A stretch of DNA of 64,000 nucleotides from a virus (IMGVR_UViG_3300005573_001500), one strand, 5' to 3'; numbered from the stretch's first letter, positions 39,994 through 60,267 are shown. Notes: generated by a model not told the origin, from the sequence alone. Translations and numbers: made by a program.

Positions 39994-40708
39994 CTACTCG
40001 AAATCAAATTTTATTTCTTCTTGTTCTTCAACAAAGTTAAACTGAATTTCCTCTTTTTTTTTCTATCAATTCAATCTCTTTAACCATAAACGATTGAAGA
40101 TTTATAAAAGACGGTTTTTCTGCGAAAAGCTTTGACAAGAAAAGTTTAAAGTTTATAATGTTGAGTTCTAGAATTTCAAAAGTTGATAAGCCTGGATATA
40201 AGTTTGAAATGGTTTGATGCTTATTCCAATCTTGCCATATTTCTCCGTGATTTAAAGTTAAAAAGGGAATTGTAGTGTCAAAACCGTTAAAATAGTAAAG
40301 GACACGTGGAGATATTCCTTCTCTTACTCCGAGAAACCATCTTTTCTTTCCCTCTGTTAACTTCAGAAAAGTCTGCAAATCATAGTCACGCCGGTAGTAA
40401 GGCATCCCGACCCATTCAAAATCGCTAAAATCCTCCTTTACACTATGTAGAGGAAAAATCCAATTAATGTCTGGATATTGATTTTTGAATTTTCGCATTT
40501 CCGTATAACATAAATCTGGAGCAACTGCAAAGTGAATTAGACCGCAACCATATCTACGAAGTTCTCTCTCCAACCATTTTATATCAGGCTTTCCCTTTTT
40601 TTCTATAAATTTATTATCTAAAAACTGTGGGTATGTTAGAAATCCATGTCTATTGACTATTTTACGTATTTCCCGTAAAGTTTCCATTGTGGGAAGAGCT
40701 ACAATCAT
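39994..40708 (-). CDS. TGT/DpdA-like TIM-barrel protein (DUF6610-like); apparent +1 shift in A9 near the 3' end
   Basis: FLDNKF, FAVAPD, IFPLH, WVGMP, WFLG, GFDTT, HGEIW follow TGT-fold motif order; removing one A at 40054-40062 gives 237 aa ending EEIQFNFVEEQEEIKFDFE. Confidence 0.55.
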
Positions 40709-47110: not shown

Positions 47111-48172
47111 TTACTTCAATTTGTTTTTAAGATAAACTTCACTTATGAAGTTGATTCCATATTTTGAGAACGCTTCTAATTCAACTTTCTTTTTGAGTTT
47201 GTCCCATAGTCTTAGCTGTTCCATTATGAATGGGTCGTTTTTGCATCTTACGTCTTTCATTAAGTCGTATAGTCTTTTTGTGTCTTTGTCTGTGAATTTT
47301 CCTTTTTTAGGGTCTACTGGTAGTTTATAGTCTATTATGTCTTGTGGATATATGCCTATCCATTTTGCATTCATAACATTTAATCCTTTAACATGTGCGA
47401 GAGAGATACTGTTATACTTAATTGTTAAAAATATTGACAGTCCGTAGGGGTCAGAATCCGTTAACACAAATACTGGTAATTTGAACTGTTCACTTAACCT
47501 TCTAACTAGTATTCTACAGTTTCTTGGCGGTTGTCCTTCACTGAAAACTAATAAAGCATTATATTTCTTATAAACACCGTCTTCTACGAATCTTCTGAAG
47601 ACTGCCTGTTTTTCAGCTATTATTATTTTGTCTGCATTTACTTCTAAGAATTCTGTGTTACTTGTTAGTTCTGGTCCTATTGCTAAACCGTCAGGATGTT
47701 CGTTTAAACTGTATATTTTGTCTGTGTGTGGAATCCAAGGTCTAGGTTGAACATATCTGAATTTTGCATCTCCGAATATTACTGCTCGTTCTTTCGGGTA
47801 AATGTTGAAGTTTTCTCTTGTTAATCCTGTTAATGCTTCTAAGTCTTCTATTATACTGTTACTTTCATGTTGTTCTTGAAAAGCAATATCTTCAAAACCC
47901 ATACTAGTGTAGTAGATGTCTCTTAAAGTTGTTGTTCTATTTGTTGACAGTAATTCTTTATTAACATACCAGATTAGCCAACATAATTGTGCAAAAGGTT
48001 TAACTGTTGAAAGTTTACCGGCACTTCTAACAAACTTGTGAGAGCCTAATGTTAAGCCTTCTTCCGAAAGTTTAACGTTTTTAGCTGTTCTATCTGGAAC
48101 AAACAGCTTAGGAATTTCTTTTCTACTTAATTGTTCATAAACAGATTCTGCAACTTTAACAATACTATTCAT
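47111..48172 (-). CDS. top6A: DNA topoisomerase VI subunit A / Spo11 homolog
   Basis: TLRDIYY catalytic Tyr, EQHESNSIIEDLE, IIAEKQAVF and LTDSDPYG Toprim motifs, KVELEAF. Confidence 0.95.
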   Translation of the reverse strand: MNSIVKVAESVYEQLSRKEIPKLFVPDRTAKNVKLSEEGLTLGSHKFVRSAGKLSTVKPFAQLCWLIWYVNKELLSTNRTTTLRDIYYTSMGFEDIAFQEQHESNSIIEDLEALTGLTRENFNIYPKERAVIFGDAKFRYVQPRPWIPHTDKIYSLNEHPDGLAIGPELTSNTEFLEVNADKIIIAEKQAVFRRFVEDGVYKKYNALLVFSEGQPPRNCRILVRRLSEQFKLPVFVLTDSDPYGLSIFLTIKYNSISLAHVKGLNVMNAKWIGIYPQDIIDYKLPVDPKKGKFTDKDTKRLYDLMKDVRCKNDPFIMEQLRLWDKLKKKVELEAFSKYGINFISEVYLKNKLK

Positions 48173-48554
48173 TTATTCCCACCCCATTTCTTGAGCCGGT
48201 TATAATGGTATCTTTTCGTTCTGAATTTGAAATGGCTAACGTTTTCACCGCATAGCCTTGATGAAAATAGGGCTTTTTTTGAGAATCCCCATTGAAAATT
48301 ATCTCAGCAACGGCTTCCCTAACTATTGGATGTATGCCATACTTTTGCGATACTGTATCCCAATTTTCTTCCCATAACATTGGTGGTAGAATTTTCTCAA
48401 TATAAGGCCCATACACTTGAATTACTTCGTTCAGAAATTCTTCCGCATTTTCAAAGTATTTTTTGTCATATATTTTTGTTAGGTATGTATTCCACACAAA
48501 TATTTCTTTGAGTCGCTCTAGGGTGCGATTCATTATTTGGGAAGGAGGGATCAA
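48165..48554 (-). CDS. Hypothetical protein coupled to top6A
   Basis: 129 aa; 8-nt overlap with the top6A start; no GHKL motifs. Confidence 0.55.
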   Translation of the reverse strand: MIPPSQIMNRTLERLKEIFVWNTYLTKIYDKKYFENAEEFLNEVIQVYGPYIEKILPPMLWEENWDTVSQKYGIHPIVREAVAEIIFNGDSQKKPYFHQGYAVKTLAISNSERKDTIITGSRNGVGINE

Positions 48555-48578
48555 TAAGGTTCTCCCTCAACATGAATA

Positions 48579-48619
48579 TTTAATCTGTTAGGATTAAAGT
48601 TTTTTTTTTTTTTAATCCT
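48579..48619. repeat. T14 tract inside overlapping inverted repeats
   Basis: AGGATTAAA (48590-98) pairs with TTTAATCCT (48611-19); its GATTAAA core also pairs with TTTAATC (48579-85); T14 at 48600-48613. Confidence 0.75.
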
Positions 48620-48724
48620 CGGGAAATATCAAAAATAACTACTATAAGTTCAATGCCTTTACAAAAATGCAAACTAATACCATGTCAAAAATAAAAAATA
48701 AAGCTAGCTAACTAAGTTAGAGGG

Positions 48725-49874
48725 TTATCCAGCAAATTTGTTGGCATAAACGCCCATTTTAACTAGTTGTGAATCAGCGTATTTAATTAATGACTTCCAG
48801 ACGCTTTTTTCAAGTCTGTTAAAGACAAAATCCCGAAACGTTCCCTCATTTATATGTTCTCTCATTTTCCATATTTCCGTCTGATAAACGTGAACGTTAT
48901 GGATGGCCCGGAGAAGTCTCGCATGCGGCGTTCTATCTGCGAATTTTGATAGAGAATTTCCGCGACAAGCAGGACAAGAGCATTCCAACAACTTTTTCTT
49001 TTCTTCTTCATTTAAAGTTTTACGTTTTTCTCTTTCTGAAATAAATCGGTCAGATACTCCAGGAAGTTGTATCACACCATAACCCGCTTTCTGAACCCAT
49101 CCAACGTAATCGAAACTATCTGCCCCGCAAAATGTTATTAGGTACGCCATGGTTCCACCGGTTCCAAATACATGCAAAAATGCATCAGGCAGTTTTTGCC
49201 GAATGTAGATCAACATATCTATAACCTTTTTCTTCCCCCCCAACCGTCCCAGAACCCTTCGATGTCATCAAAAGGGGGACTAGGCTTCCAACTCCAATAG
49301 CGGGTGGATCACAACCAAGAATTTCTCCGACTTTTTCCAACATATAATCAAGCGTTTCTCTGTCATATCCATGAATGACTGGCAATATACTTAACTTATC
49401 ATTTATAGTCAAGACTTCTTCCAAATTTTTAAGAGTTTTATTGATTCTTCTCTGGTTTGATGCTCTACTAGCTTGGGGGCTTAAGGGGAAATCTAATTGG
49501 ACCGCAATATCACATTCTATTTCTTGTTGAATTGAATAAACTTGATTAACCGTCAAACCGATTTCACGTTTTGACGTTTGGAAACCTCCGCTATCACATT
49601 TCAAGCGCATTTTGGTTGATAGATGTTTTACAAGTCTCTTTCTTTCACCATTCTTATCTTGATATAGTAGATCGTAAGCGTTAGCAAGAAAACATTCCAC
49701 ATTATTAACTGAAAGAACTGTATGCTGAAACTCATAATTTTCTATAACTGAAAGCCCGAACCATATCGCAGGAGTATTCACCTCTTTTTTCCAAGTCCTT
49801 AAAACACCTGTTCTAGCAAAACCATCTTGCGCGCGCTTCTCAAAGTTTAATCTAAGCTGATTAATCATTAACAC
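48725..49874 (-). pseudogene. tRNA-guanine transglycosylase-like (archaeosine TGT/DpdA-type) gene split by one extra G in a G7 run
   Basis: ARTGVL, DSGGFQ, QLDFP, PVIHG, GVGSLVP, HVFG, ADSFD, CSCPAC...HN; G7 to G6 at 49235-49241 gives one 382-aa ORF; no PUA domain. Confidence 0.85.
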
Positions 49875-50463
49875 CCCTTTTTAATAAAGTGAAGAGCATC
49901 AAATTACCTCGCGTTTCTTGGTCGCATACTAATTTGAAATCAAGCATCTTACTAAGCCTCTGATGAAAATTTATATTAATTTTATGGGTAATGGACATTA
50001 TATCATTTCTCTAATAAGCTTCATCTTAAAAACGTCATTTAGAAATAATTGATGTTATAGTTCATAAGCCTAAATTTGGCGTTGCAGCTGCATGTTATAA
50101 TATTACGTTTGGATTCTTATATAATTGCACAACCATAGTTTTCACCTTGGGTGATACCTAATATTATAGCAGTATTCATCGCGTTTGTTCTAATATTACA
50201 CATTTACCTACTGAAAACTCCTAATTCATGCTATTGTCTTCGTCATCAAAATCTGCGAACAAGCAACTATATTGATAAGGACCGCTTTTATTTATCATTG
50301 CATTGCCTTGAGTTATGTTTTAACAGCAGTTCCATTAAATGAATGACTTAGAAAGGTTGTTGGCCCACTCCACTCTCGTTAAATTATCGACATATACTTT
50401 CCTTAAAAAGTCTGCCGAAATGTTTTATCAAGACCTTTCTTAACTAAAATGTGGTGATATCAC

Positions 50464-51105
50464 TTGAAAGTCTTTGTTTTGACAGAATGCGCTGCAACTA
50501 AAAAATATGATCCATCTAAGGCGCCTATAAAGTTAATCTTGGAGAAACACGGTTTACCGATTCCACATTATGATCTGGAGAATGAAGATAAATACAGGGA
50601 AGTGTTAAAAGAATACATTCTCCCTGCACTGGACATGTATGAGGGATCGTTTAACTTTGTTAAGAATCTTGTTACCCAATTACGTGAAAAAGGAAACTCT
50701 GTTTTATTGTTAATGATCTCTGCACGATATGGGTTGATAAATGAGCATACACCTATTATTCCTTATCAATGTACTTTTAAATGTCTCACAAAAGATGAAA
50801 TCCGTGAAAGGGCAAATAAATTGCAGATCTATGAAAAACTTGTACAGATAGTTAAAAATGAGTTCTTCCACTTATCCATAATCATATTAGGAAAGGATTA
50901 CTTTCTTACAATATTCGACAAAGAAAAGTCGAAGAATTTATTCAACGAATTGAAGACTGAGAGGCTAATAATTTTCGGAAGTAAAGATCTTGAACGAAAA
51001 ATTAAGTGTAGAGGAGCGAAAATAGAGTTTATTACTGTTAAAGGCATCGGAGATCGAAACAAAAAAATTGAAAAATTCGTTAATAAACTAACTTACAACA
51101 ATTAA
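50464..51105 (+). CDS. YaaA-like / DUF6884-like protein
   Basis: ECAATKK...PALDMYEG...MISARYGLI...IIPYQCTF...ILGKDY. Confidence 0.7.
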   Translation: MKVFVLTECAATKKYDPSKAPIKLILEKHGLPIPHYDLENEDKYREVLKEYILPALDMYEGSFNFVKNLVTQLREKGNSVLLLMISARYGLINEHTPIIPYQCTFKCLTKDEIRERANKLQIYEKLVQIVKNEFFHLSIIILGKDYFLTIFDKEKSKNLFNELKTERLIIFGSKDLERKIKCRGAKIEFITVKGIGDRNKKIEKFVNKLTYNN

Positions 51106-51126
51106 AACTTGTAAGTTGTCTTTTTA
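51090..51126 (+). terminator. Stem-loop plus T-run terminator
   Basis: AACTTACAA/TTGTAAGTT 9-bp stem followed by GTCTTTTT. Confidence 0.55.
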
Positions 51127-51266
51127 GTATTGTTTTGAAAAACCTCATATAGCCTTTTCTATAAAATCACCAAATTTACAAGTGATCACTATATTCAAAA
51201 ATCCAAGATGCCATGCATAAACGAGGTTAAGGTTCGATTTTCACTTTAAATCCTTTTAAGACATTT

Positions 51267-52424
51267 TTAGAAAGATAGGGTTGACTCTATGGTCGAAAAT
51301 AACTTTGAACCCTTGTCTAAAATTGCAATTATCTTTGGGAAGTTAATTGAAATTCCCCTTCCCACTATAAAACGATTATCTGCAATACCGCAAAAATATC
51401 GCTCGTAAGCGAATAGCATTCGTGGAAGGTCTATTCTGAAATCGTCTTTAGAAAAATAGTAATTCTGTTCTCTGAGTTTTCTAACCATTTCCTCAGCCCA
51501 TATCTCCCAAGAAGTAAGTTGTTCTGCGCTCATTTGCCTTTGTGCTTCATATATTTTCGATAAGAGAACATAATGTCCACCATATTTCAAAAGCACGTAC
51601 GTGATTATCTCTTTAAAAGTCTCGCTTTCCTTTCCAAACCGTTCGCCTAAGTTTAGCGTATATCTGCCTATAGCCGTGAGATGTCCTGCAGCATCAAGCA
51701 ATGCATTTTGTATCAAAAAGAGTTTGTAATTCAGCAGAAATGAAGATACTCTCGTTGTTCTTTGGAATCTTCTTGATAATACTTCATTCCATAATGTTGT
51801 TAGAACCTCGTTCAAGATATTAGGTTCTTGAGCTCCTTCTAACTCTTTTGAAATTCTCAGAGCTTCAAAAACTTCTTCAGGCGTTGTTTCTCTCCAGTAA
51901 GAATAAGAACGCCTAATACCCTTCACTGACTCTTTTATGCGTCTTGCTTGAGTCTTAACTATTGAAGCTTCTTTTGCTAGTTCTATTTCCTCAGGATTCT
52001 CCATTTTGTATGAGAAGAGCCCAATGTTCAAATCATTAATTTCTATAATTTCTTTCACAAAATCTGAAACTTCAAACCCTTCCATATTAGTATCAGGAAC
52101 AACAAGGTATGAAAGTGGAAAAATCGAATTATAGCTAATTGCTTGTCCAATTCCTGTAATATATTCATGTTTATAAACGTATGGTGTTTTTACTTCAAAA
52201 GAGACTGGAAGAGGTAGATGTTCTCCTGTTAATGTTGATTGTCCCATGTATCTCTCTAACTCTCTAATGTCTATATTTCTCATTCCATAAGGGACATAAA
52301 TGAAATCCGGTTTAGGAAAATCCATTGAAACATTTGAGATAAAAACATCGCCAAATAAATGTCTAAAATTTCGTAATATAACCCTGGATAAAAACTCGGT
52401 CAACTCGTCATGACTCAGACTCAT
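51267..52424 (-). CDS. Putative type II restriction endonuclease (PD-(D/E)XK)
   Basis: PKPDFIY...SFEVKT...GIGQAISY...YLVVP; overlaps the methyltransferase stop. Confidence 0.65.
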   Translation of the reverse strand: MSLSHDELTEFLSRVILRNFRHLFGDVFISNVSMDFPKPDFIYVPYGMRNIDIRELERYMGQSTLTGEHLPLPVSFEVKTPYVYKHEYITGIGQAISYNSIFPLSYLVVPDTNMEGFEVSDFVKEIIEINDLNIGLFSYKMENPEEIELAKEASIVKTQARRIKESVKGIRRSYSYWRETTPEEVFEALRISKELEGAQEPNILNEVLTTLWNEVLSRRFQRTTRVSSFLLNYKLFLIQNALLDAAGHLTAIGRYTLNLGERFGKESETFKEIITYVLLKYGGHYVLLSKIYEAQRQMSAEQLTSWEIWAEEMVRKLREQNYYFSKDDFRIDLPRMLFAYERYFCGIADNRFIVGRGISINFPKIIAILDKGSKLFSTIESTLSF

Positions 52425-53415
52425 AAATTAATCCGCCGTAGAGTTTTCTAATCAATGCATTGAATAATTTCTTTTGTTGATCGATTTTCTTTTCTTCTTT
52501 TCTAAAAATGAGGCAATATTGATGATGCCTGTTGCCAATATAACTTGAATAAACTCCCAAGGGAATGAGAGGCTTATCATCTTGCAACCATAATTTTTCG
52601 TCTTTAGGAACCCATTTTTCGCTTAATAACAATAACGTATCGAATGCGAGAGGGTAGAGTCTTCCATCAGCATAAATGTTGTTTGTAATTATGGTGAGAT
52701 ACCCTCCATCTTCGACCACATCATAAACCTTATCAAATATCCTCTTCTGTTCAAGCAGAAACCGTGCGTAATCATCGATGTTTCCCAAATCCCTCGGATC
52801 AGCTGAATACAGAGTAGGTAAACCTTCTTCTGTTCTCTTTTTTTGTCGGATATAGTTTCTTTTCAGCTGGTTCCAATATGGTGGCGATGTAATAACATAT
52901 TTAACTCTTGGGAGGCTGTGTTCTCTCCATATTTTGTCGATTTCTCTCGAATCTCCTACAATAATTATTTGTTTTGTCTCTCCTTTACCGGTGAATTTAT
53001 CAATTTTGGTTTGATTTTTTACATTTTCTAGCCTTAACTTAGCGATGTTTGCCCAATGTTCGGATAATTCTATTCCTATGCCATTTCTATCACATTCGTA
53101 ACATGCAATCAATGTTGAGCCACTGCCGAGAAATGGGTCTAAAACCCAATCTCCCTTTTTTGTAAAGAATTCTATGAATTCTCCTATTAAAGACTCTGGA
53201 AAGCTTGCGGGATGTTTGATTTTATCATTATCCCTTGGAGGGGGGACATGTATAAACCAGCTCTTTTCTGATATTCTTCTATTTTCTGGTTTGTTATAGT
53301 CGCAGATTTTTCCTCCTTCAGAATTGTAAACAGCCCACGATTTCGTGAATTTCAACCATTCTTTGCCAGATAAATCATTTAGCTTGTTATTGCTCCTTTT
53401 TTCCTTCTCTATCAT
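52408..53415 (-). CDS. Amino (N4-C/N6-A) DNA methyltransferase
   Basis: HPASFP, VLDPFLGSGST (motif I), GIEL, ITSPPYW (motif IV). Confidence 0.9.
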   Translation of the reverse strand: MIEKEKRSNNKLNDLSGKEWLKFTKSWAVYNSEGGKICDYNKPENRRISEKSWFIHVPPPRDNDKIKHPASFPESLIGEFIEFFTKKGDWVLDPFLGSGSTLIACYECDRNGIGIELSEHWANIAKLRLENVKNQTKIDKFTGKGETKQIIIVGDSREIDKIWREHSLPRVKYVITSPPYWNQLKRNYIRQKKRTEEGLPTLYSADPRDLGNIDDYARFLLEQKRIFDKVYDVVEDGGYLTIITNNIYADGRLYPLAFDTLLLLSEKWVPKDEKLWLQDDKPLIPLGVYSSYIGNRHHQYCLIFRKEEKKIDQQKKLFNALIRKLYGGLIYESES

Positions 53416-53706
53416 TTTTATTATCCAAATTAAGCTATGCGTTTAAAGATTTATAAATTCTCTTAGGTTGTCTTTAATTTTTAAATTTTAGGAAGCGCCG
53501 TTTAACCTTGCTTACCATAGACGTTTTGGTGCCATTTATTGTTCAATCAGAATTATTTTTGGTTTTTGTTCAGTTCGAAAGAAAATTGCCAAGAATTGTG
53601 AGGTTGGGAAGTGAAAATCTGGAATCTGACAAAAGCTCAACTGGTTGCGAAGAATAATGGTCATATACTTTTCAAATTTTATATGTCTATGTAATGGAAT
53701 TATTCT

Positions 53707-54357
53707 TTAAAGAAATTTTGTCAAGCCGACAACTATTAACGATGACCCGACAGTTGCCACGACCCTTTCATAAACCATCAGAGGCAAAATTCCAACAAAT
53801 AGTTCCCATGGAAGCCCAAGTAAATGTACCGCAAAGATCATCATCATTCCTTGCTCAGTCATAGTTGAGATATAAGCATACAATGGTGTCTTCAAATGCA
53901 TTAGTGTCATTTTCTTAAAAGCACTTAATGCGGCAAACGCTATTGCGATCGAATGAGGAACTACGAAGTATGGGAACGGGTAATTTTTGATTAGGTAAGC
54001 TGTAATGGCAATCGCTAGAAAAGCGGAGGTTGCTAGAGCGCCTTTATTTGCTTTATGATAGGTCAAGCTTCCAAATGTTGCTCCCACAACTGGCAGTAGA
54101 ATTGTGTATGGGCCGAACATGGCTTGCGACGGCGCAATATAAAAGGCTAGGGTTCCTCCAAAAAGTGATGCAAAAAAGGCCTCTAATGGAGGTAAAATAA
54201 TGGCGATTACGGGAGTTATTATGAGGTTTAGCGCTAGGAAGCTTGGTGTTCCAATAAAGACGCTTATCGGCACAAGGCTTGTAGCTGCGTAAAGCGCGGC
54301 AAAAACCCCTATACGAGAAGCCCTAAGCGCCTTATCAGACGATTTAACCAGCTTCAT
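53707..54357 (-). CDS. ECF transporter S-component-like membrane protein
   Basis: VFAALYAA...PVIAIILPP...SLFGG; about 6 TM. Confidence 0.65.
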   Translation of the reverse strand: MKLVKSSDKALRASRIGVFAALYAATSLVPISVFIGTPSFLALNLIITPVIAIILPPLEAFFASLFGGTLAFYIAPSQAMFGPYTILLPVVGATFGSLTYHKANKGALATSAFLAIAITAYLIKNYPFPYFVVPHSIAIAFAALSAFKKMTLMHLKTPLYAYISTMTEQGMMMIFAVHLLGLPWELFVGILPLMVYERVVATVGSSLIVVGLTKFL

Positions 54358-54677
54358 TTCTTCACCTTACCAGCAAGCAAGTCCTCATAAACCCGTCTCA
54401 TATGAAAAATAGCCGCAACAGTCTCTTCAGGAAACATGCATCCGCAAGCACCACATTTAGGACATATCATCCAACTGCATTTTACACAGATCTTCGCTTC
54501 AGAAGAGCTGAAACGTTCACCGCACTTAAAGCAGTAAACATATGGGTCAACCATAAATTGCAAAAAGTTTTCTATAAGCCTTGAAAGAGGAATATGTTTT
54601 TGATCCGCCACGAGCTTTGCCCTGCTTAAAATTGTTCCATCCAATGTTATTGTAAGCTTAACTCTAGACGTACTCAC
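54354..54677 (-). CDS. RHH (DUF6364/CopG-like) regulator with Cys-rich C-terminus
   Basis: KLTITLDGTILSRAK...LSRLIENFL; CFKC..CVKC..CPKCGACGC. Confidence 0.75.
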   Translation of the reverse strand: MSTSRVKLTITLDGTILSRAKLVADQKHIPLSRLIENFLQFMVDPYVYCFKCGERFSSSEAKICVKCSWMICPKCGACGCMFPEETVAAIFHMRRVYEDLLAGKVKK

Positions 54678-55033: not shown

Positions 55034-55822
55034 TTGGTGTTTATGTTTCAATGGCCTGAGGAAATTCCTTACAAGGAGTACATTAGGCTCTATATTTTAG
55101 AGAAAACACTTAGACAGTTTGTCGTTTTTCAACTGACAAAAATAAGTGAAAAATGGTGGAGACGGAGAATACCCAATGACGTCTGGGATAAAGCTGAAAA
55201 ACGAAAGATGGAAGAGGAACGTAGATTGACATACTCACTTGACTTGCATCCAATCTGGTACGTTGACTTCGGTGATTATGTGAAAATTATCACACGAGAA
55301 GATAACTGGAAAGACATTTTTAAGGAAATTTTCATCAGCGAATGCCGATTTATGGCAGCTATGGAAATGCTTGAGCCAATACGAAATAAAATTGCGCATA
55401 TGCGACCGTTAAGTGTTAGAGAGAAGAAAAACTTAGATGCGTTAACTGAGGATCTCTTAATACCAATATGGAAAGTTTACAACACTATATACGTAGAAAA
55501 GGCTGAAAAGCTAACAAAAGAGAGCATGTGGAAAGAAGCAGAGCAAATTCTCAAGAAGGGATACGAAGAGACAAGAGGTGATCCATGGATAGCGTACAAA
55601 CTTGGAGAACTCTACATTCACGTGAATAAAATAGAAGAAGCTAGGCATTGGCTAAAGATTGCAATTAAGTATTTACCCCTCAATCGGTACAAGAGATTTG
55701 TTCTCCAAAAACTTCGTGAAATAAAAAACAAAACAAAATTAAAAATGAAAGTTTGCCCTCAATGCGGAAACAAAACGCAAGCAGAGCACAAGTTCTGCAG
55801 TATGTGCGGCTTCAAATTCTAG
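55034..55822 (+). CDS. Swt1-like HEPN domain protein with TPR-like repeat and zinc ribbon
   Basis: LEKTLRQFV...WW...YVDFGDYVKII...W..IF...IRNKIAH (Rx4H); CPQCG...CSMCG. Confidence 0.8.
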   Translation: MVFMFQWPEEIPYKEYIRLYILEKTLRQFVVFQLTKISEKWWRRRIPNDVWDKAEKRKMEEERRLTYSLDLHPIWYVDFGDYVKIITREDNWKDIFKEIFISECRFMAAMEMLEPIRNKIAHMRPLSVREKKNLDALTEDLLIPIWKVYNTIYVEKAEKLTKESMWKEAEQILKKGYEETRGDPWIAYKLGELYIHVNKIEEARHWLKIAIKYLPLNRYKRFVLQKLREIKNKTKLKMKVCPQCGNKTQAEHKFCSMCGFKF

Positions 55823-56867: not shown

Positions 56868-57812
56868 ATGAACGAAAATAAATTAAAAGAAAATGTAACG
56901 TTTGCAGCTATATACGCTAGAACATCATCCCCGAATCAGCGTTTTAACTACAGCATAAAAGAACAGGTTCATCAGTGCTGGAATTTCTGCCTTCATAGAG
57001 GCTGGGTTGTCAGATATGTGTTCATCGACGAGGCGCAAAGCGGCGGAACTGTTGAAAGGCCAAAGTTTCAGCTGATGTTGCAAAGGGCAAAAGAAGGCAG
57101 ATTCAACGTTATTGTGTTCTGGAAGCTTGACAGATTTTGCCGGTCGCTTGTGGATCTGGTCAATATTGAAAGGATGTTGAGGCAGTGGAATGTCGGGCTA
57201 TGTAGTGTAACGGAGTTTATTGACACAACAACACCTGTTGGACGCTTTAACTTCCGAAATCTAGCTTCTGTGGCTGAGCTTGAGCGAGAGATTATAGGCG
57301 AGAGGGCACGTCTCGGATTGCATGCACTTGCCCGCCAGGGTAAGTGGCCCAACCCTCATCCACCGCTTGGGTACGACAAACATGAAGATGGGCGTCTCGT
57401 GATAAACAGGGCAGAAGCTGAGCTCGTAAAGAAGATTTTCCAACTTTACCTCAAATACAAATCTATGAGCCATGTAGCTTACCTCTTGAATAAGGAAAGG
57501 GTTCAGACCAAGAGAGGCAGACGATGGAATGCCAGGGCCGTTAAAGACGTACTCGCTAACAAGTTGTATATAGGTGGGTTTGATGTTGCGGGCGCTAACA
57601 TCAGCATAGAAGAATATAGAATTATTGACGATAAAACATTCAATACCGCCCAAAAGCTGAGAGCCAGATTTATTTCTCAAAAGAGCAAGAGATCACCTAT
57701 GCAGCATGATAGAAAGCTGGAGCAAATTGAAAGGATCATTTCCAGATATTATGAGACGTTAAGAAAATACAATATAAAACTAAACTTCATGGAGGATTCA
57801 GCTGAATGGTAG
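56868..57812 (+). CDS. Serine recombinase (resolvase + Recombinase domain)
   Basis: IYARTSSPNQ, WKLDRFCRS, AELEREIIGER...G...A.QGKW, W....VKDVLANKLYIG. Confidence 0.92.
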   Translation: MNENKLKENVTFAAIYARTSSPNQRFNYSIKEQVHQCWNFCLHRGWVVRYVFIDEAQSGGTVERPKFQLMLQRAKEGRFNVIVFWKLDRFCRSLVDLVNIERMLRQWNVGLCSVTEFIDTTTPVGRFNFRNLASVAELEREIIGERARLGLHALARQGKWPNPHPPLGYDKHEDGRLVINRAEAELVKKIFQLYLKYKSMSHVAYLLNKERVQTKRGRRWNARAVKDVLANKLYIGGFDVAGANISIEEYRIIDDKTFNTAQKLRARFISQKSKRSPMQHDRKLEQIERIISRYYETLRKYNIKLNFMEDSAEW

Positions 57813-58752: not shown

Positions 58753-60267
58753 TCACATGTAGCTTGATAAGATACGTTGAATTCCTTTTTCCTTGAATTT
58801 TGTCAGGATATAGTCAAGGTTATTGGTTGATCGTAGCGCTTTAATAAAAGTTTTCAGAGCTTCTTCCCGTTTGATAATCCACTCGGCGATACGTTCTAGC
58901 TCATCTCTCTTTATTAACCTACGTTGAACTCTATCTCTTTTGCAAATGTAAGATTGCCCATTTAATATCATAGCTTGCTTACAAATTGGACAATACGGGG
59001 CGACATTATCGAAACATTGAAGTATATCATATCCGAAAACTTCCACCATTTCATCTATAGGCTTTCTTTTACGTTTATATTCCTCTTTTTTACTTTGAAT
59101 GATTTCCTGAGCCTTCATGAATATTTCCATTGGGATGAAAGTGAGAGAAGGGTCTTCAACCTCCACGTTGCCAAACAGCTTTTCAACGTTTCGAGAACCA
59201 AACTTTGGCTTTCCTATGTATACAGGGTTCGTTAATATGTTAGCCACACGCTCAGGATTTAAAGGCCTAGGAAGTAAGTCTTTATACTTTGCGTTAATCA
59301 CCTCTGCCACCTTACTATACTCTTTACTTTCTAAAAATGATCTAAATAGGTCGGTAATTAGGGGTTCATATGTTGGTGTCTTCTTAATCCATAGACCACA
59401 TTTCTCATAACCAATGGGTATGGGCATGTTCCATCTGCGGTTCTTAAAGTTATGTATTTTTGAGCTAAGTGAGACATACGTGCGCCGTTTATTCTCTTCC
59501 TCAGCTTGATAGGCCTTGAGCGACGTTAACACTAGGTCATATAAACGTTTAACATCGATTTCTTCTGTTAACGTAATCGTCAATACGTTGTGAGCTCGCA
59601 ACTGCATTATAAAACCTAGTAGTTCAAAAGATGCTCTCCCTATACGGTCTACGTTGCGTATCAAAAACTCGCTAATTTCTCCCTTCTCTGCTAAATATAG
59701 AATGGCACCTAGCTTTTTACGATTAAAATTTTCACCACTTTTTGCCTCTACGAAAAGGTAAAGCGTACTTACACCTCTTCTCTTAGCCAACTCCACAAGT
59801 TCTTGCCTTTGAACTTGTAAGCTCTCTCCCTTGGAAACTTGTCTGGAGGTGCTAACTCTTGCATAACCCACAGCTTTTTTACCCGATCCACCCTCAAGAT
59901 TGATAATTTCATCGATCGGCAAAAGTATCCTTAAGGCAATTCCCCTAAGATTATCCTCACCTTGATCCCGCTCAGTGTTATCTGCTACCTCTTCAATAGC
60001 GCAAGAGTTGGGTTTCAAAATAAATTTATCGAGGGTGACTCCCAACAGAAATACCGGCACGTGTATGATTGGCATGTGGATTATATGCGAAATATATGAT
60101 TGGTATAAGCCTTCAAAAATCAGAAGTATGATTATGGGATATGTTTTGCGAAAAGATTTTATAAAAAATATGATGCGCTTAGCCAAGGCAGATCGCATCA
60201 TACAGAGTTCATAAATTTTGCGAAAAATTATAGTATCAAAGGCTAGTTTCATAATTTTACTTTTCAT
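58753..60267 (-). CDS. Large serine recombinase with N-terminal extension and zinc ribbon
   Basis: VGYARVSTSRQ, RNVDRIGR, YQAEEENKRR, NILTNPVYIG, CPIC...YIC; true start uncertain. Confidence 0.9.
   Translation of the reverse strand: MKSKIMKLAFDTIIFRKIYELCMMRSALAKRIIFFIKSFRKTYPIIILLIFEGLYQSYISHIIHMPIIHVPVFLLGVTLDKFILKPNSCAIEEVADNTERDQGEDNLRGIALRILLPIDEIINLEGGSGKKAVGYARVSTSRQVSKGESLQVQRQELVELAKRRGVSTLYLFVEAKSGENFNRKKLGAILYLAEKGEISEFLIRNVDRIGRASFELLGFIMQLRAHNVLTITLTEEIDVKRLYDLVLTSLKAYQAEEENKRRTYVSLSSKIHNFKNRRWNMPIPIGYEKCGLWIKKTPTYEPLITDLFRSFLESKEYSKVAEVINAKYKDLLPRPLNPERVANILTNPVYIGKPKFGSRNVEKLFGNVEVEDPSLTFIPMEIFMKAQEIIQSKKEEYKRKRKPIDEMVEVFGYDILQCFDNVAPYCPICKQAMILNGQSYICKRDRVQRRLIKRDELERIAEWIIKREEALKTFIKALRSTNNLDYILTKFKEKGIQRILSSYM

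Follow-up and report, generated by a model that had tools for sequence, protein, structure and literature searches.

Does a stretch of virus-derived DNA carry a small, self-sufficient immune system that marks DNA with two different modifications? The question is raised by IMGVR_UViG_3300005573_001500, a sequence of 64 kb analysed here as a whole (the window), in which a gene for a paralogue of tRNA-guanine transglycosylase (TGT) and a DUF6884/YaaA-like gene lie beside genes for a restriction endonuclease and a DNA methylase. A preliminary description, made from the sequence alone, took these four genes for a compact module of 7-deazaguanine DNA modification linked to methylation-based restriction. 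The open reading frame (ORF) map and Pfam matches placed all four genes where it had put them, the TGT gene as two ORFs, with the DUF6884 and TGT genes divergent as described. We conclude that the segment from 48165 to 54677 is probably a degraded defence island of the Bathyarchaeia type, with two layers: deazaguanine marking of DNA and a restriction-modification (R-M) pair. In its intact form, the island most likely places both a 7-deazaguanine base and a methyl group on its own DNA, and the deazaguanine arm of the window copy is most likely dead.

A short transglycosylase paired with a Cys-x3-Lys protein

Both ORFs of the window TGT gene match Pfam TGT (E-values 2.8e-12 and 7.1e-12), covering Pfam positions 2-203 and 211-354 of 357. 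The catalytic Asp motifs DSGGF, LDFP and GADSFD and the zinc ligands CxCxxC...H are all found. Residues D92, D126, D250, C296, C298, C301 and H323 show little or no variation in the alignment of the clade to which this TGT belongs, at positions backed by alignment with 1iq8, the archaeosine TGT (ArcTGT) of Pyrococcus horikoshii. The earlier account of a PUA-less TGT with all catalytic and zinc ligands was thus right about the residues and wrong about a single intact gene, a frameshift in a run of seven G (G7) having been overlooked.

For the family tests we used as reference an uninterrupted homologue, P0001 (380 aa, contig L001; related loci are numbered L001 and onwards), which is 98% identical to the window TGT. 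It passes the general TGT model TIGR00449 (84.9 bits versus a cut-off of 47.6) and fails the archaeosine TGT equivalog TIGR00432 (114 bits versus 350). The protein ends at the catalytic domain, without the C-terminal C1-C3/PUA domains. With ArcTGT 1iq8, the family profile aligns through no more than the catalytic domain (E = 1.2e-43), in which the two catalytic Asp, the substrate Asp and the zinc site are in register; with DpdA 7ui4, it aligns at E = 6.8e-9. A hidden Markov model of the clade gives its members 396-503 bits, canonical ArcTGTs 110-131 and DpdA 40. Directly after the nucleophile Asp, the clade carries a specific insertion, W..KA..G.IQLPG..DR, where ArcTGT has a gap and DpdA a longer insertion. 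In a maximum-likelihood tree, the clade stands apart from the host ArcTGTs (support 98/96); the single DpdA falls on the clade side, on a very long and unreliable branch. A separate canonical ArcTGT (ORFs of 541-667 aa, matched frames of 544-673 aa) is present in all five host genomes with a clade member, ArcS-like proteins are encoded in several of them, and four of the five give a strong QueC match. These comparisons mark the clade TGT as distinct from the housekeeping enzyme. The choice of His or Gln at the PVIHGY position was rejected as a marker of DNA-type enzymes: Asgard ArcTGTs also have His, and an alphaproteobacterial DpdA has Gln.

The DUF6884/YaaA-like protein had been proposed to act as a DNA-binding partner. 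It has both motifs of DUF6884, C9..K13 (CxxxK) and ISARYG (LSAxxG), which the Pfam authors consider the likely active site of a fold related to YaaA (PMC11701544). Its homologues at 40-96% identity all carry PF21818 (DUF6884) in precomputed annotation; Pfam YaaA matches the window protein at E = 0.095. The nearest PADLOC match is DpdC (E = 1.3e-7), over the N-terminal ~120 residues only. DpdC is a DUF328/YaaA-family protein that converts preQ0 in DNA to 7-amido-7-deazaguanine (ADG) in DNA, independently of DpdA/B (PMC5699537, PMC10164549). Among 19 partners encoded next to clade TGTs, 12 match DUF6884, 7 match DUF5591 (the ArcS core, PF17884) and 4 match YaaA; besides the start Met, only Cys9, Lys13 and Tyr101 (window numbering) are invariant in all of them. 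The signature motif of ArcS, PC-X3-KPY-X2-S-X2-H (PMC5699537), is found exactly in the seven DUF5591-type partners. The window protein, with no PF17884 match, reads E-C-x3-K-K-Y-x2-S (C-AAT-KKYDPS). A genuine DpdC from a canonical dpdC-dpdB-dpdA cluster (PADLOC 6.7e-77) aligns with it through its own motif, C-TYR-KKVRPS, and through (I/L)SAxxG. A search with the partner profile recovers true DpdC at E = 1.1e-7, and hhalign gives the partner family and genuine DpdC a probability of only 27%.

The Cys-x3-Lys motif that the partner has in common with DpdC and the ArcS catalytic core makes it a likelier candidate for an enzyme that finishes the inserted base, by converting the nitrile of preQ0, than for a DNA binder. 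In QueF and QueF-L, a Cys forms a thioimide with the nitrile of preQ0 (PMC5485725); by analogy, we infer that the Cys of the DUF6884 protein would attack the preQ0 nitrile and form a thioimide as in QueF.

The link to DNA comes from viruses. In a phage collection of 50,697 records, matches to the clade TGT were limited to the Sulfolobus viruses STSV1, STSV2 and STSV4, and a viral contig collection yielded only one related locus. STSV2_15 (DpdA) aligns with the clade profile with an hhalign probability of 99.6% and shares the clade-specific insertion (KA..G...LPG..R); the product of the next gene, STSV2_16 (ArcS2), aligns with the partner family profile at 97.6%. The DpdA of STSV2 is the nearest characterised relative of the clade TGT. 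STSV-2 was reported by Cui et al. to encode DpdA and ArcS2 only and to contain the deoxynucleoside of 7-carboxy-7-deazaguanine (dCDG) in its DNA, and ArcS2 of Vibrio phage nt-1 makes deoxyarchaeosine (dG+) (PMC10516641). Like the pair of this virus, whose DNA contains a 7-deazaguanine (dCDG), the window cassette combines a short PUA-less TGT, with an insertion after the nucleophile Asp, and an adjoining small C-x3-K protein. Unlike it, the window cassette belongs to a cell or an island and is associated with restriction modules, a methylase and a membrane protein. Its partner is of the DUF6884 rather than the DUF5591 type, without the leading Pro and trailing His of the ArcS motif, and its TGT retains the zinc site and is ~90 residues longer.

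Restriction, effector and supply genes around the clade TGT

Genome contigs yielded 26 loci that encode a clade TGT, in Bathyarchaeia, Asgard groups, Archaeoglobales, Methanobacteriaceae, Thermoplasmata, Korarchaeia-like Thermoproteota and a few bacteria. Matches in metagenome contigs came to 167 stretches, of which 80 were kept; flank-based counts were made on the 20 of these loci in which the TGT gene is flanked by 3 kb or more on each side. Using a partner profile built from stand-alone partners (full-length ArcS left out), we found a C-x3-K partner gene in 19 of these 20 loci (13 by the ArcS2-type profile and 7 of the DUF6884 type, one matching both), so the arrangement is not due to chance. 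The proposal of a deazaguanine DNA modification module was right in kind, given this conserved pair of DpdA and a DpdC/ArcS2-like protein; in the window itself, where the TGT gene is frameshifted, the deazaguanine arm is probably inactive. The alternative of a base-excision module found no support.

The whole four-gene set also recurs. The six closest relatives, L060-L065 (67-98% identity), have the endonuclease gene in all six cases and the methylase and DUF6884 genes in five each, and the set is found again at 30-48% identity, in varied gene order, in L008, L010, L011, L005, L014 and L076-L078; several Asgard loci are among its carriers. Lack of co-occurrence elsewhere, which had been named in advance as grounds for abandoning the proposal, is therefore not what the related loci show. 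Between its TGT and DUF6884 genes, L008 has a methylase and an endonuclease gene, whereas L002 and L004 have a gene for a ParB_N-methylase fusion at this place. Methylase genes adjoining a clade TGT gene lie at L002:4602-5942 (ParB_N, 28.8 bits), L004:9203-10543 (weak ParB_N) and L010:8058-9392 (a 444-aa methylase). Bacterial DpdA requires the ParB-like ATPase DpdB (PMC10164549), which the ParB_N-methylase fusions might replace.

In the window, the methylase gene overlaps the endonuclease gene by 17 bases. Its product matches the PADLOC model for type II methyltransferases (1.6e-32) and has no Pfam ParB_N match; in a beta-class enzyme its SPPY motif presumably points to N4-cytosine over N6-adenine specificity. 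Neither Pfam nor PADLOC gave a match for the 385-aa protein. Its 65 homologues come mostly from Bathyarchaeia and Thermoproteota, and P39-D40 and E77-x-K79 are invariant across 32 of them. The best Foldseek match of its AlphaFold model (predicted local distance difference test score, pLDDT, 89.6) is the type IIS endonuclease PaqCI (8em1; E = 3.3e-13; template modelling score over the query, TMq, 0.69). The likeness to PaqCI extends to the whole-chain fold and the PD...ExK nuclease core; sequence identity is only 15%, and the window protein is ~100 residues shorter. In L036, the same pair lies among housekeeping genes with no TGT gene nearby, indicating a separable type II R-M unit. We thus regard the methylase and the 385-aa protein as a type II(S) R-M pair by predicted activities. 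Recurrent adjacency bears out the suggested link between the TGT cassette and methylation-based restriction, and the solitary occurrence of the pair suggests that it need not depend on the deazaguanine arm.

The idea of a naturally compact system did not survive comparison with intact relatives, which add genes for a helicase resembling DruE, DpdJ and DrmA, a DUF1998/MZB protein and a DrmC-like PLD protein. PADLOC matches of the full-length helicase are DruE (3e-52), DpdJ (6e-35) and DrmA (4e-21), and the MZB/DUF1998 and DrmC-like PLD genes come next. All three genes are found in L002, L008 and L060-L063; every one of the four close relatives with enough flank has them. Other loci combine the TGT with other genes: in the Asgard locus L010, the cassette adjoins BrxL and PglZ, and in L055 (38-9044) one operon encodes NurA, a HerA-like DUF87 protein, a 1419-aa protein, ArcS2 (DUF5591) and the clade TGT. 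The L055 operon represents another effector set with the same modification pair.

The DISARM system consists of the DrmA helicase, the DrmB DUF1998 protein, the DrmC PLD protein and a methylase. Similarly, L002, L008 and L060-L063 have helicase, MZB/DUF1998 and PLD genes adjoining a DNA methylase gene. In contrast to DISARM, which is without TGT or DpdC-like genes, their helicase is closest to DruE and DpdJ and more weakly related to DrmA, and the window retains only 120 helicase residues. The Dpd systems of Salmonella Montevideo and other bacteria (dpdA-K; PMC10164549, PMC5699537) also combine a TGT paralogue, a nitrile-converting enzyme of the DUF328 superfamily and restriction genes of helicase/PLD type. 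Unlike them, the window has an ArcTGT-derived TGT and a partner ~100 residues shorter than DpdC, a free-standing DpdB is lacking (some relatives have the ParB_N-methylase fusion instead), and no DpdD or DpdG-I genes were recognised. BREX-related capture systems that contain a TGT have been proposed computationally, with no DpdB or DpdC homologue reported in them (PMC12839542). They resemble L010 (BrxL and PglZ) and L055 (NurA and HerA) in having a TGT paralogue within a BREX-like or HerA-type defence locus of archaea or bacteria, and differ from the present clade, in which a partner of the DpdC/ArcS2 type is almost always present (19 of 20 loci). By model thresholds, the cassette falls outside bacterial DpdA, ArcTGT and DISARM; its logic would be that of Dpd, and its closest known counterpart is the viral DpdA-ArcS2 pair.

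Two further genes belong to the cassette. The 216-aa membrane protein falls in Atlas clusters named energy-coupling factor (ECF) S component (score 0.95), and its gene co-occurs with the clade TGT in L001, L002, L004, L008 and L005. Genes for DUF6364 homologues head the same cassette in L001, L002, L004 and L008, and in L059; the DUF6364 protein is likely a cassette regulator. L058 and L059 encode homologues of the window DUF6884 protein (50-53% identity), directly after QueT in L058 and directly after DUF6364 and Vut_1 (PF02592, YhhQ family) genes in L059. Both loci further encode a short, divergent TGT (36-43 Pfam bits), joined in L059 by a DNA methylase. QueT/QrtT and COG1738/YhhQ are the two known families of queuosine-precursor transporters, and YhhQ carries preQ0 (PMC5372724, PMC11130926). 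The position of its gene suggests that the window membrane protein is a putative importer of a 7-deazaguanine precursor, and its family may be a third kind of such importer. The slot beside DUF6884 genes (L058:420-1613; L059:7946-9639) is occupied by three unrelated membrane families, QueT, Vut_1/YhhQ and the ECF-S-like protein of the window.

Together, these genes suggest the following mechanism. In the first layer, the DpdA-like transglycosylase would exchange guanine in double-stranded DNA for preQ0, supplied by the archaeosine pathway of the host or imported by the ECF-S-like membrane protein. The Cys-x3-Lys enzyme of the DUF6884/DpdC/ArcS2 family would then attack the nitrile to give an amide, amidine or acid, and in intact relatives a helicase, DUF1998 and PLD nuclease trio of DISARM/Dpd type would attack unmarked DNA. 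The second layer would be the self-sufficient type II(S) R-M pair, PF01555 methylase and PaqCI-like endonuclease. In the window copy, the transglycosylase gene is frameshifted, the helicase is truncated after ~120 residues at virus-like DNA, and the DUF1998 and PLD genes are gone.

Two lesions in the window copy

The reading frame of the window TGT gene is broken by an extra G in the G7 run, a +1 shift that leaves two overlapping ORFs. Contig L001, 99.77% identical to the window across 8.2 kb, has six G and an intact 380-aa TGT, as does L060 at 97% identity with its six G and intact TGT. The G7 run is shared by the window and L049 (JGI 3300027863). More distant relatives encode the Gly-Gly pair as GGAGGA or GGTGGA, with no homopolymer, which is therefore specific to the lineage of the window. 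By these comparisons, the window TGT gene would be a pseudogene or an OFF allele. In L031 (9932-11137), from an alphaproteobacterial metagenome-assembled genome, a clade TGT is spread over three reading frames and may be a decayed copy or an assembly error.

The second lesion lies downstream of the TGT gene. A 129-aa ORF there corresponds to the N-terminal ~120 residues of a 1355-aa DEAD/Helicase_C protein, of which L002, L008, L001 and L060 have complete copies; tblastn with the L008 helicase matches residues 1-120 only. The identity of the window with L001 and with L060 ends at the same base, just before the Walker A motif of the helicase; a Top6A gene has its ATG 24 bases further on. In both L001 and L060, the full helicase gene is followed by DUF1998/MZB and then PLD genes, whereas the rest of the helicase gene and the MZB and PLD genes have no match anywhere in the 64 kb. 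The junction may have arisen by insertion into the helicase gene, or by deletion or recombination. The statement that dpdB-K genes are missing from the window is correct as it stands, but it holds only because the rest of the module has been lost, as the helicase remnant shows. No que genes are present in the window either.

The same truncated helicase gene lies beside Top6A in L049 (junction region L049:1366-2788). Differences between L049 and the window are a 24-bp indel, an altered A-run length and, within the TGT gene of L049, a 102-bp duplication. The presence of both lesions in L049 despite its own differences argues for real decay within one lineage. The tandem duplication of 102 bp (L049:~770-972; window 48959-49060) affects an already frameshifted TGT gene and adds another disabling change within this lineage. 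The spacer between the TGT gene and the helicase remnant contains a run of 14 A (A14, 48601-48614) that is seven long (A7) in L001 and L049, and 24 bp (48701-48724) that are missing from L049; homopolymer length thus differs among near-identical contigs.

Could the cassette nevertheless be alive, the G6/G7 difference being an ON/OFF slippage switch or a sequencing error, and the four genes a compact dual-mark system that dispenses with the helicase trio? Near-identical sequences do differ by one G in a homopolymer, every other cassette ORF of the window is intact (methylase, endonuclease, DUF6884, membrane protein and regulator), and some relatives pair the TGT with effectors other than the trio. 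However, the G tract is confined to this lineage and not conserved, and close relatives keep the trio wherever flank is sufficient. In addition, loss of the helicase, MZB and PLD genes in the same lineage, with the TGT duplication gained by L049, forms a pattern of decay. We therefore consider a living cassette unlikely, and a degraded island the better reading.

Table 1. Features of the island and its left boundary in the window.
Feature	Position	Strand	Evidence
Breakpoint; virus-like element DNA to the left, starting with Top6A at 48172	48197		end of L001 and L060 alignments
Helicase remnant, 129-aa ORF	48165..48554	-	residues 1-120 of 1355-aa helicase
PUA-less TGT paralogue, frameshifted	48725..49874	-	ORFs 49185-49874 and 48725-49243
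G7 homopolymer, +1 frameshift in TGT gene	49235..49241	-	comparison with L001, L060 and L049
Divergent intergenic region, DUF6884 gene to TGT gene, 589 bp	49875..50463		ORF map
DUF6884/YaaA-like protein, 213 aa	50464..51105	+	Pfam DUF6884, 27.1 bits
Type IIS-like PD-(D/E)XK restriction endonuclease, 385 aa (predicted)	51267..52424	-	fold match, PD...ExK motif
Beta-class N4/N6 DNA methyltransferase, PF01555, SPPY motif	52408..53415	-	Pfam N6_N4_Mtase, 104.7 bits
Polytopic membrane protein, 216 aa, ECF S-component-like	53707..54357	-	weak Pfam ECF-ribofla_trS, E = 0.0027
Small DUF6364 protein, Cys-rich (CxxC-type) tail	54354..54677	-	Pfam DUF6364, E = 4.4e-9

The window around the island (Table 1) is low in G+C (30-37%), and from 1 to 54.7 kb its genes are almost all encoded by the minus strand. 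The virus-like element left of the breakpoint encodes Top6A, a RecA-like ATPase, a PD-(D/E)XK nuclease and more. On the other side, the cassette is adjoined by a gene (55034-55822, +) for a HEPN_Swt1, TPR and zinc-ribbon protein, a match to the PADLOC candidate PDC-M34B (E = 4.5e-16); it is also found in L001 and may be a further defence gene. Right of the island, serine recombinase genes at 56868-57812 (+) and 58753-60267 (-) bracket a gene for a TFIIB paralogue, which suggests the boundary of a mobile cassette. An ORF at 40037-40708 (-) has no match to the clade TGT profile or to a PADLOC model. The 64-kb window has no tRNA genes, and an identity as a Borg-like element was rejected for want of a tandem-repeat signature. 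A sigma-70 promoter and terminator scan of the window gave signals at the level of shuffled sequence, the sigma-70 model being unsuited to archaea.

Substrate of the cassette and its place in archaeal defence

A role of the TGT and DUF6884 proteins in RNA modification or in 7-deazaguanine salvage, at an additional tRNA site or in the processing of an imported base or nucleoside, would make their vicinity to defence genes a matter of island clustering. It is ArcTGT, not DpdA, that is closest in sequence (1iq8 versus 7ui4, above). Proteins of the window DUF6884 type are encoded directly after precursor transporters, L058 also encodes an ArcS-like protein of 567 aa, and ArcS is reported to be capable of acting on preQ0 nucleoside derivatives (PMC11298593). 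In contrast, the tRNA-binding C-terminal domains are missing from the clade TGT, and the hosts retain full ArcTGT and ArcS. Furthermore, linkage to DNA methylase, helicase/PLD, BREX-like and NurA/HerA genes recurs in three subclades, and the nearest characterised relative comes from a virus with modified DNA (PMC10516641). A role in RNA modification or salvage is thus improbable, and DNA is the favoured substrate. A protein target, as for the TGT-fold enzyme Cap10 of type IV CBASS, is very improbable: one defence system is reported to contain a TGT-family enzyme with such an activity (bioRxiv 10.1101/2025.04.06.647259), but no CD-NTase or QueC-like Cap9 was found by PADLOC and Pfam among the scanned proteins of the window and related loci, and partners of the DpdC/ArcS type, such as the one here, act on preQ0 borne by nucleic acid.

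Several observations weigh against a degraded island for deazaguanine marking of DNA. P0001 fails the NCBIfam DpdA model NF041059 (16.6 bits versus a cut-off of 200, a true DpdA scoring 536), and the PADLOC DpdA model matches the TGT at E = 9e-5 only; with these low scores, the TGT does not belong to the bacterial DpdA family. The DUF6884 match of the partner is just below the Pfam cut-off of 30 bits, and Foldseek matches of its model (pLDDT 87) are weak and generic (Rossmann/vWA-like), with YaaA fourth at E = 1.7e-3. PADLOC detected no DpdB/ParB among the window proteins scanned, and by hhalign the membrane protein has no similarity to QueT or Vut_1/YhhQ, which leaves gene position as the ground for an importer role. 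That the substrate is DNA rather than tRNA is suggested by context and by analogy with one characterised viral relative. Finally, the G-run could be a reversible switch instead of the mark of a dead gene, and the occurrence of G7 and the junction in both the window and L049 could reflect a shared error or one variable population.

A broader proposal can be put forward only tentatively. Bathyarchaeia and Asgard archaea might possess a previously undescribed dual-mark immunity, in which an ArcTGT-derived DNA transglycosylase, a DUF6884 enzyme (maybe with a product other than ADG, archaeosine (G+) or 7-carboxy-7-deazaguanine (CDG)), an importer of a new family and a DNA methylase would license a DISARM-like helicase-DUF1998-PLD machine. 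If so, the window would record how a virus-like element knocked out such a machine. Chemical evidence for 7-deazaguanine in DNA exists from bacteria (Dpd), phages and archaeal viruses; we found no report in the literature of its presence in archaeal cellular DNA. The clade described here offers a testable candidate defined by sequence: a short ArcTGT-derived enzyme, nearly always with an ArcS/DpdC-type partner, accompanied by interchangeable effectors (DISARM-like, BREX-like or NurA-HerA) and at some loci by known queuosine-precursor transporters. The Cys-x3-Lys motif shared by DUF6884, DUF5591 and DUF328 ties these families together and hints at a nitrile chemistry that they have in common. 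The window itself is chiefly useful as a natural example of decay, in which a frameshift is combined with the loss of a restriction module at a virus-like junction.

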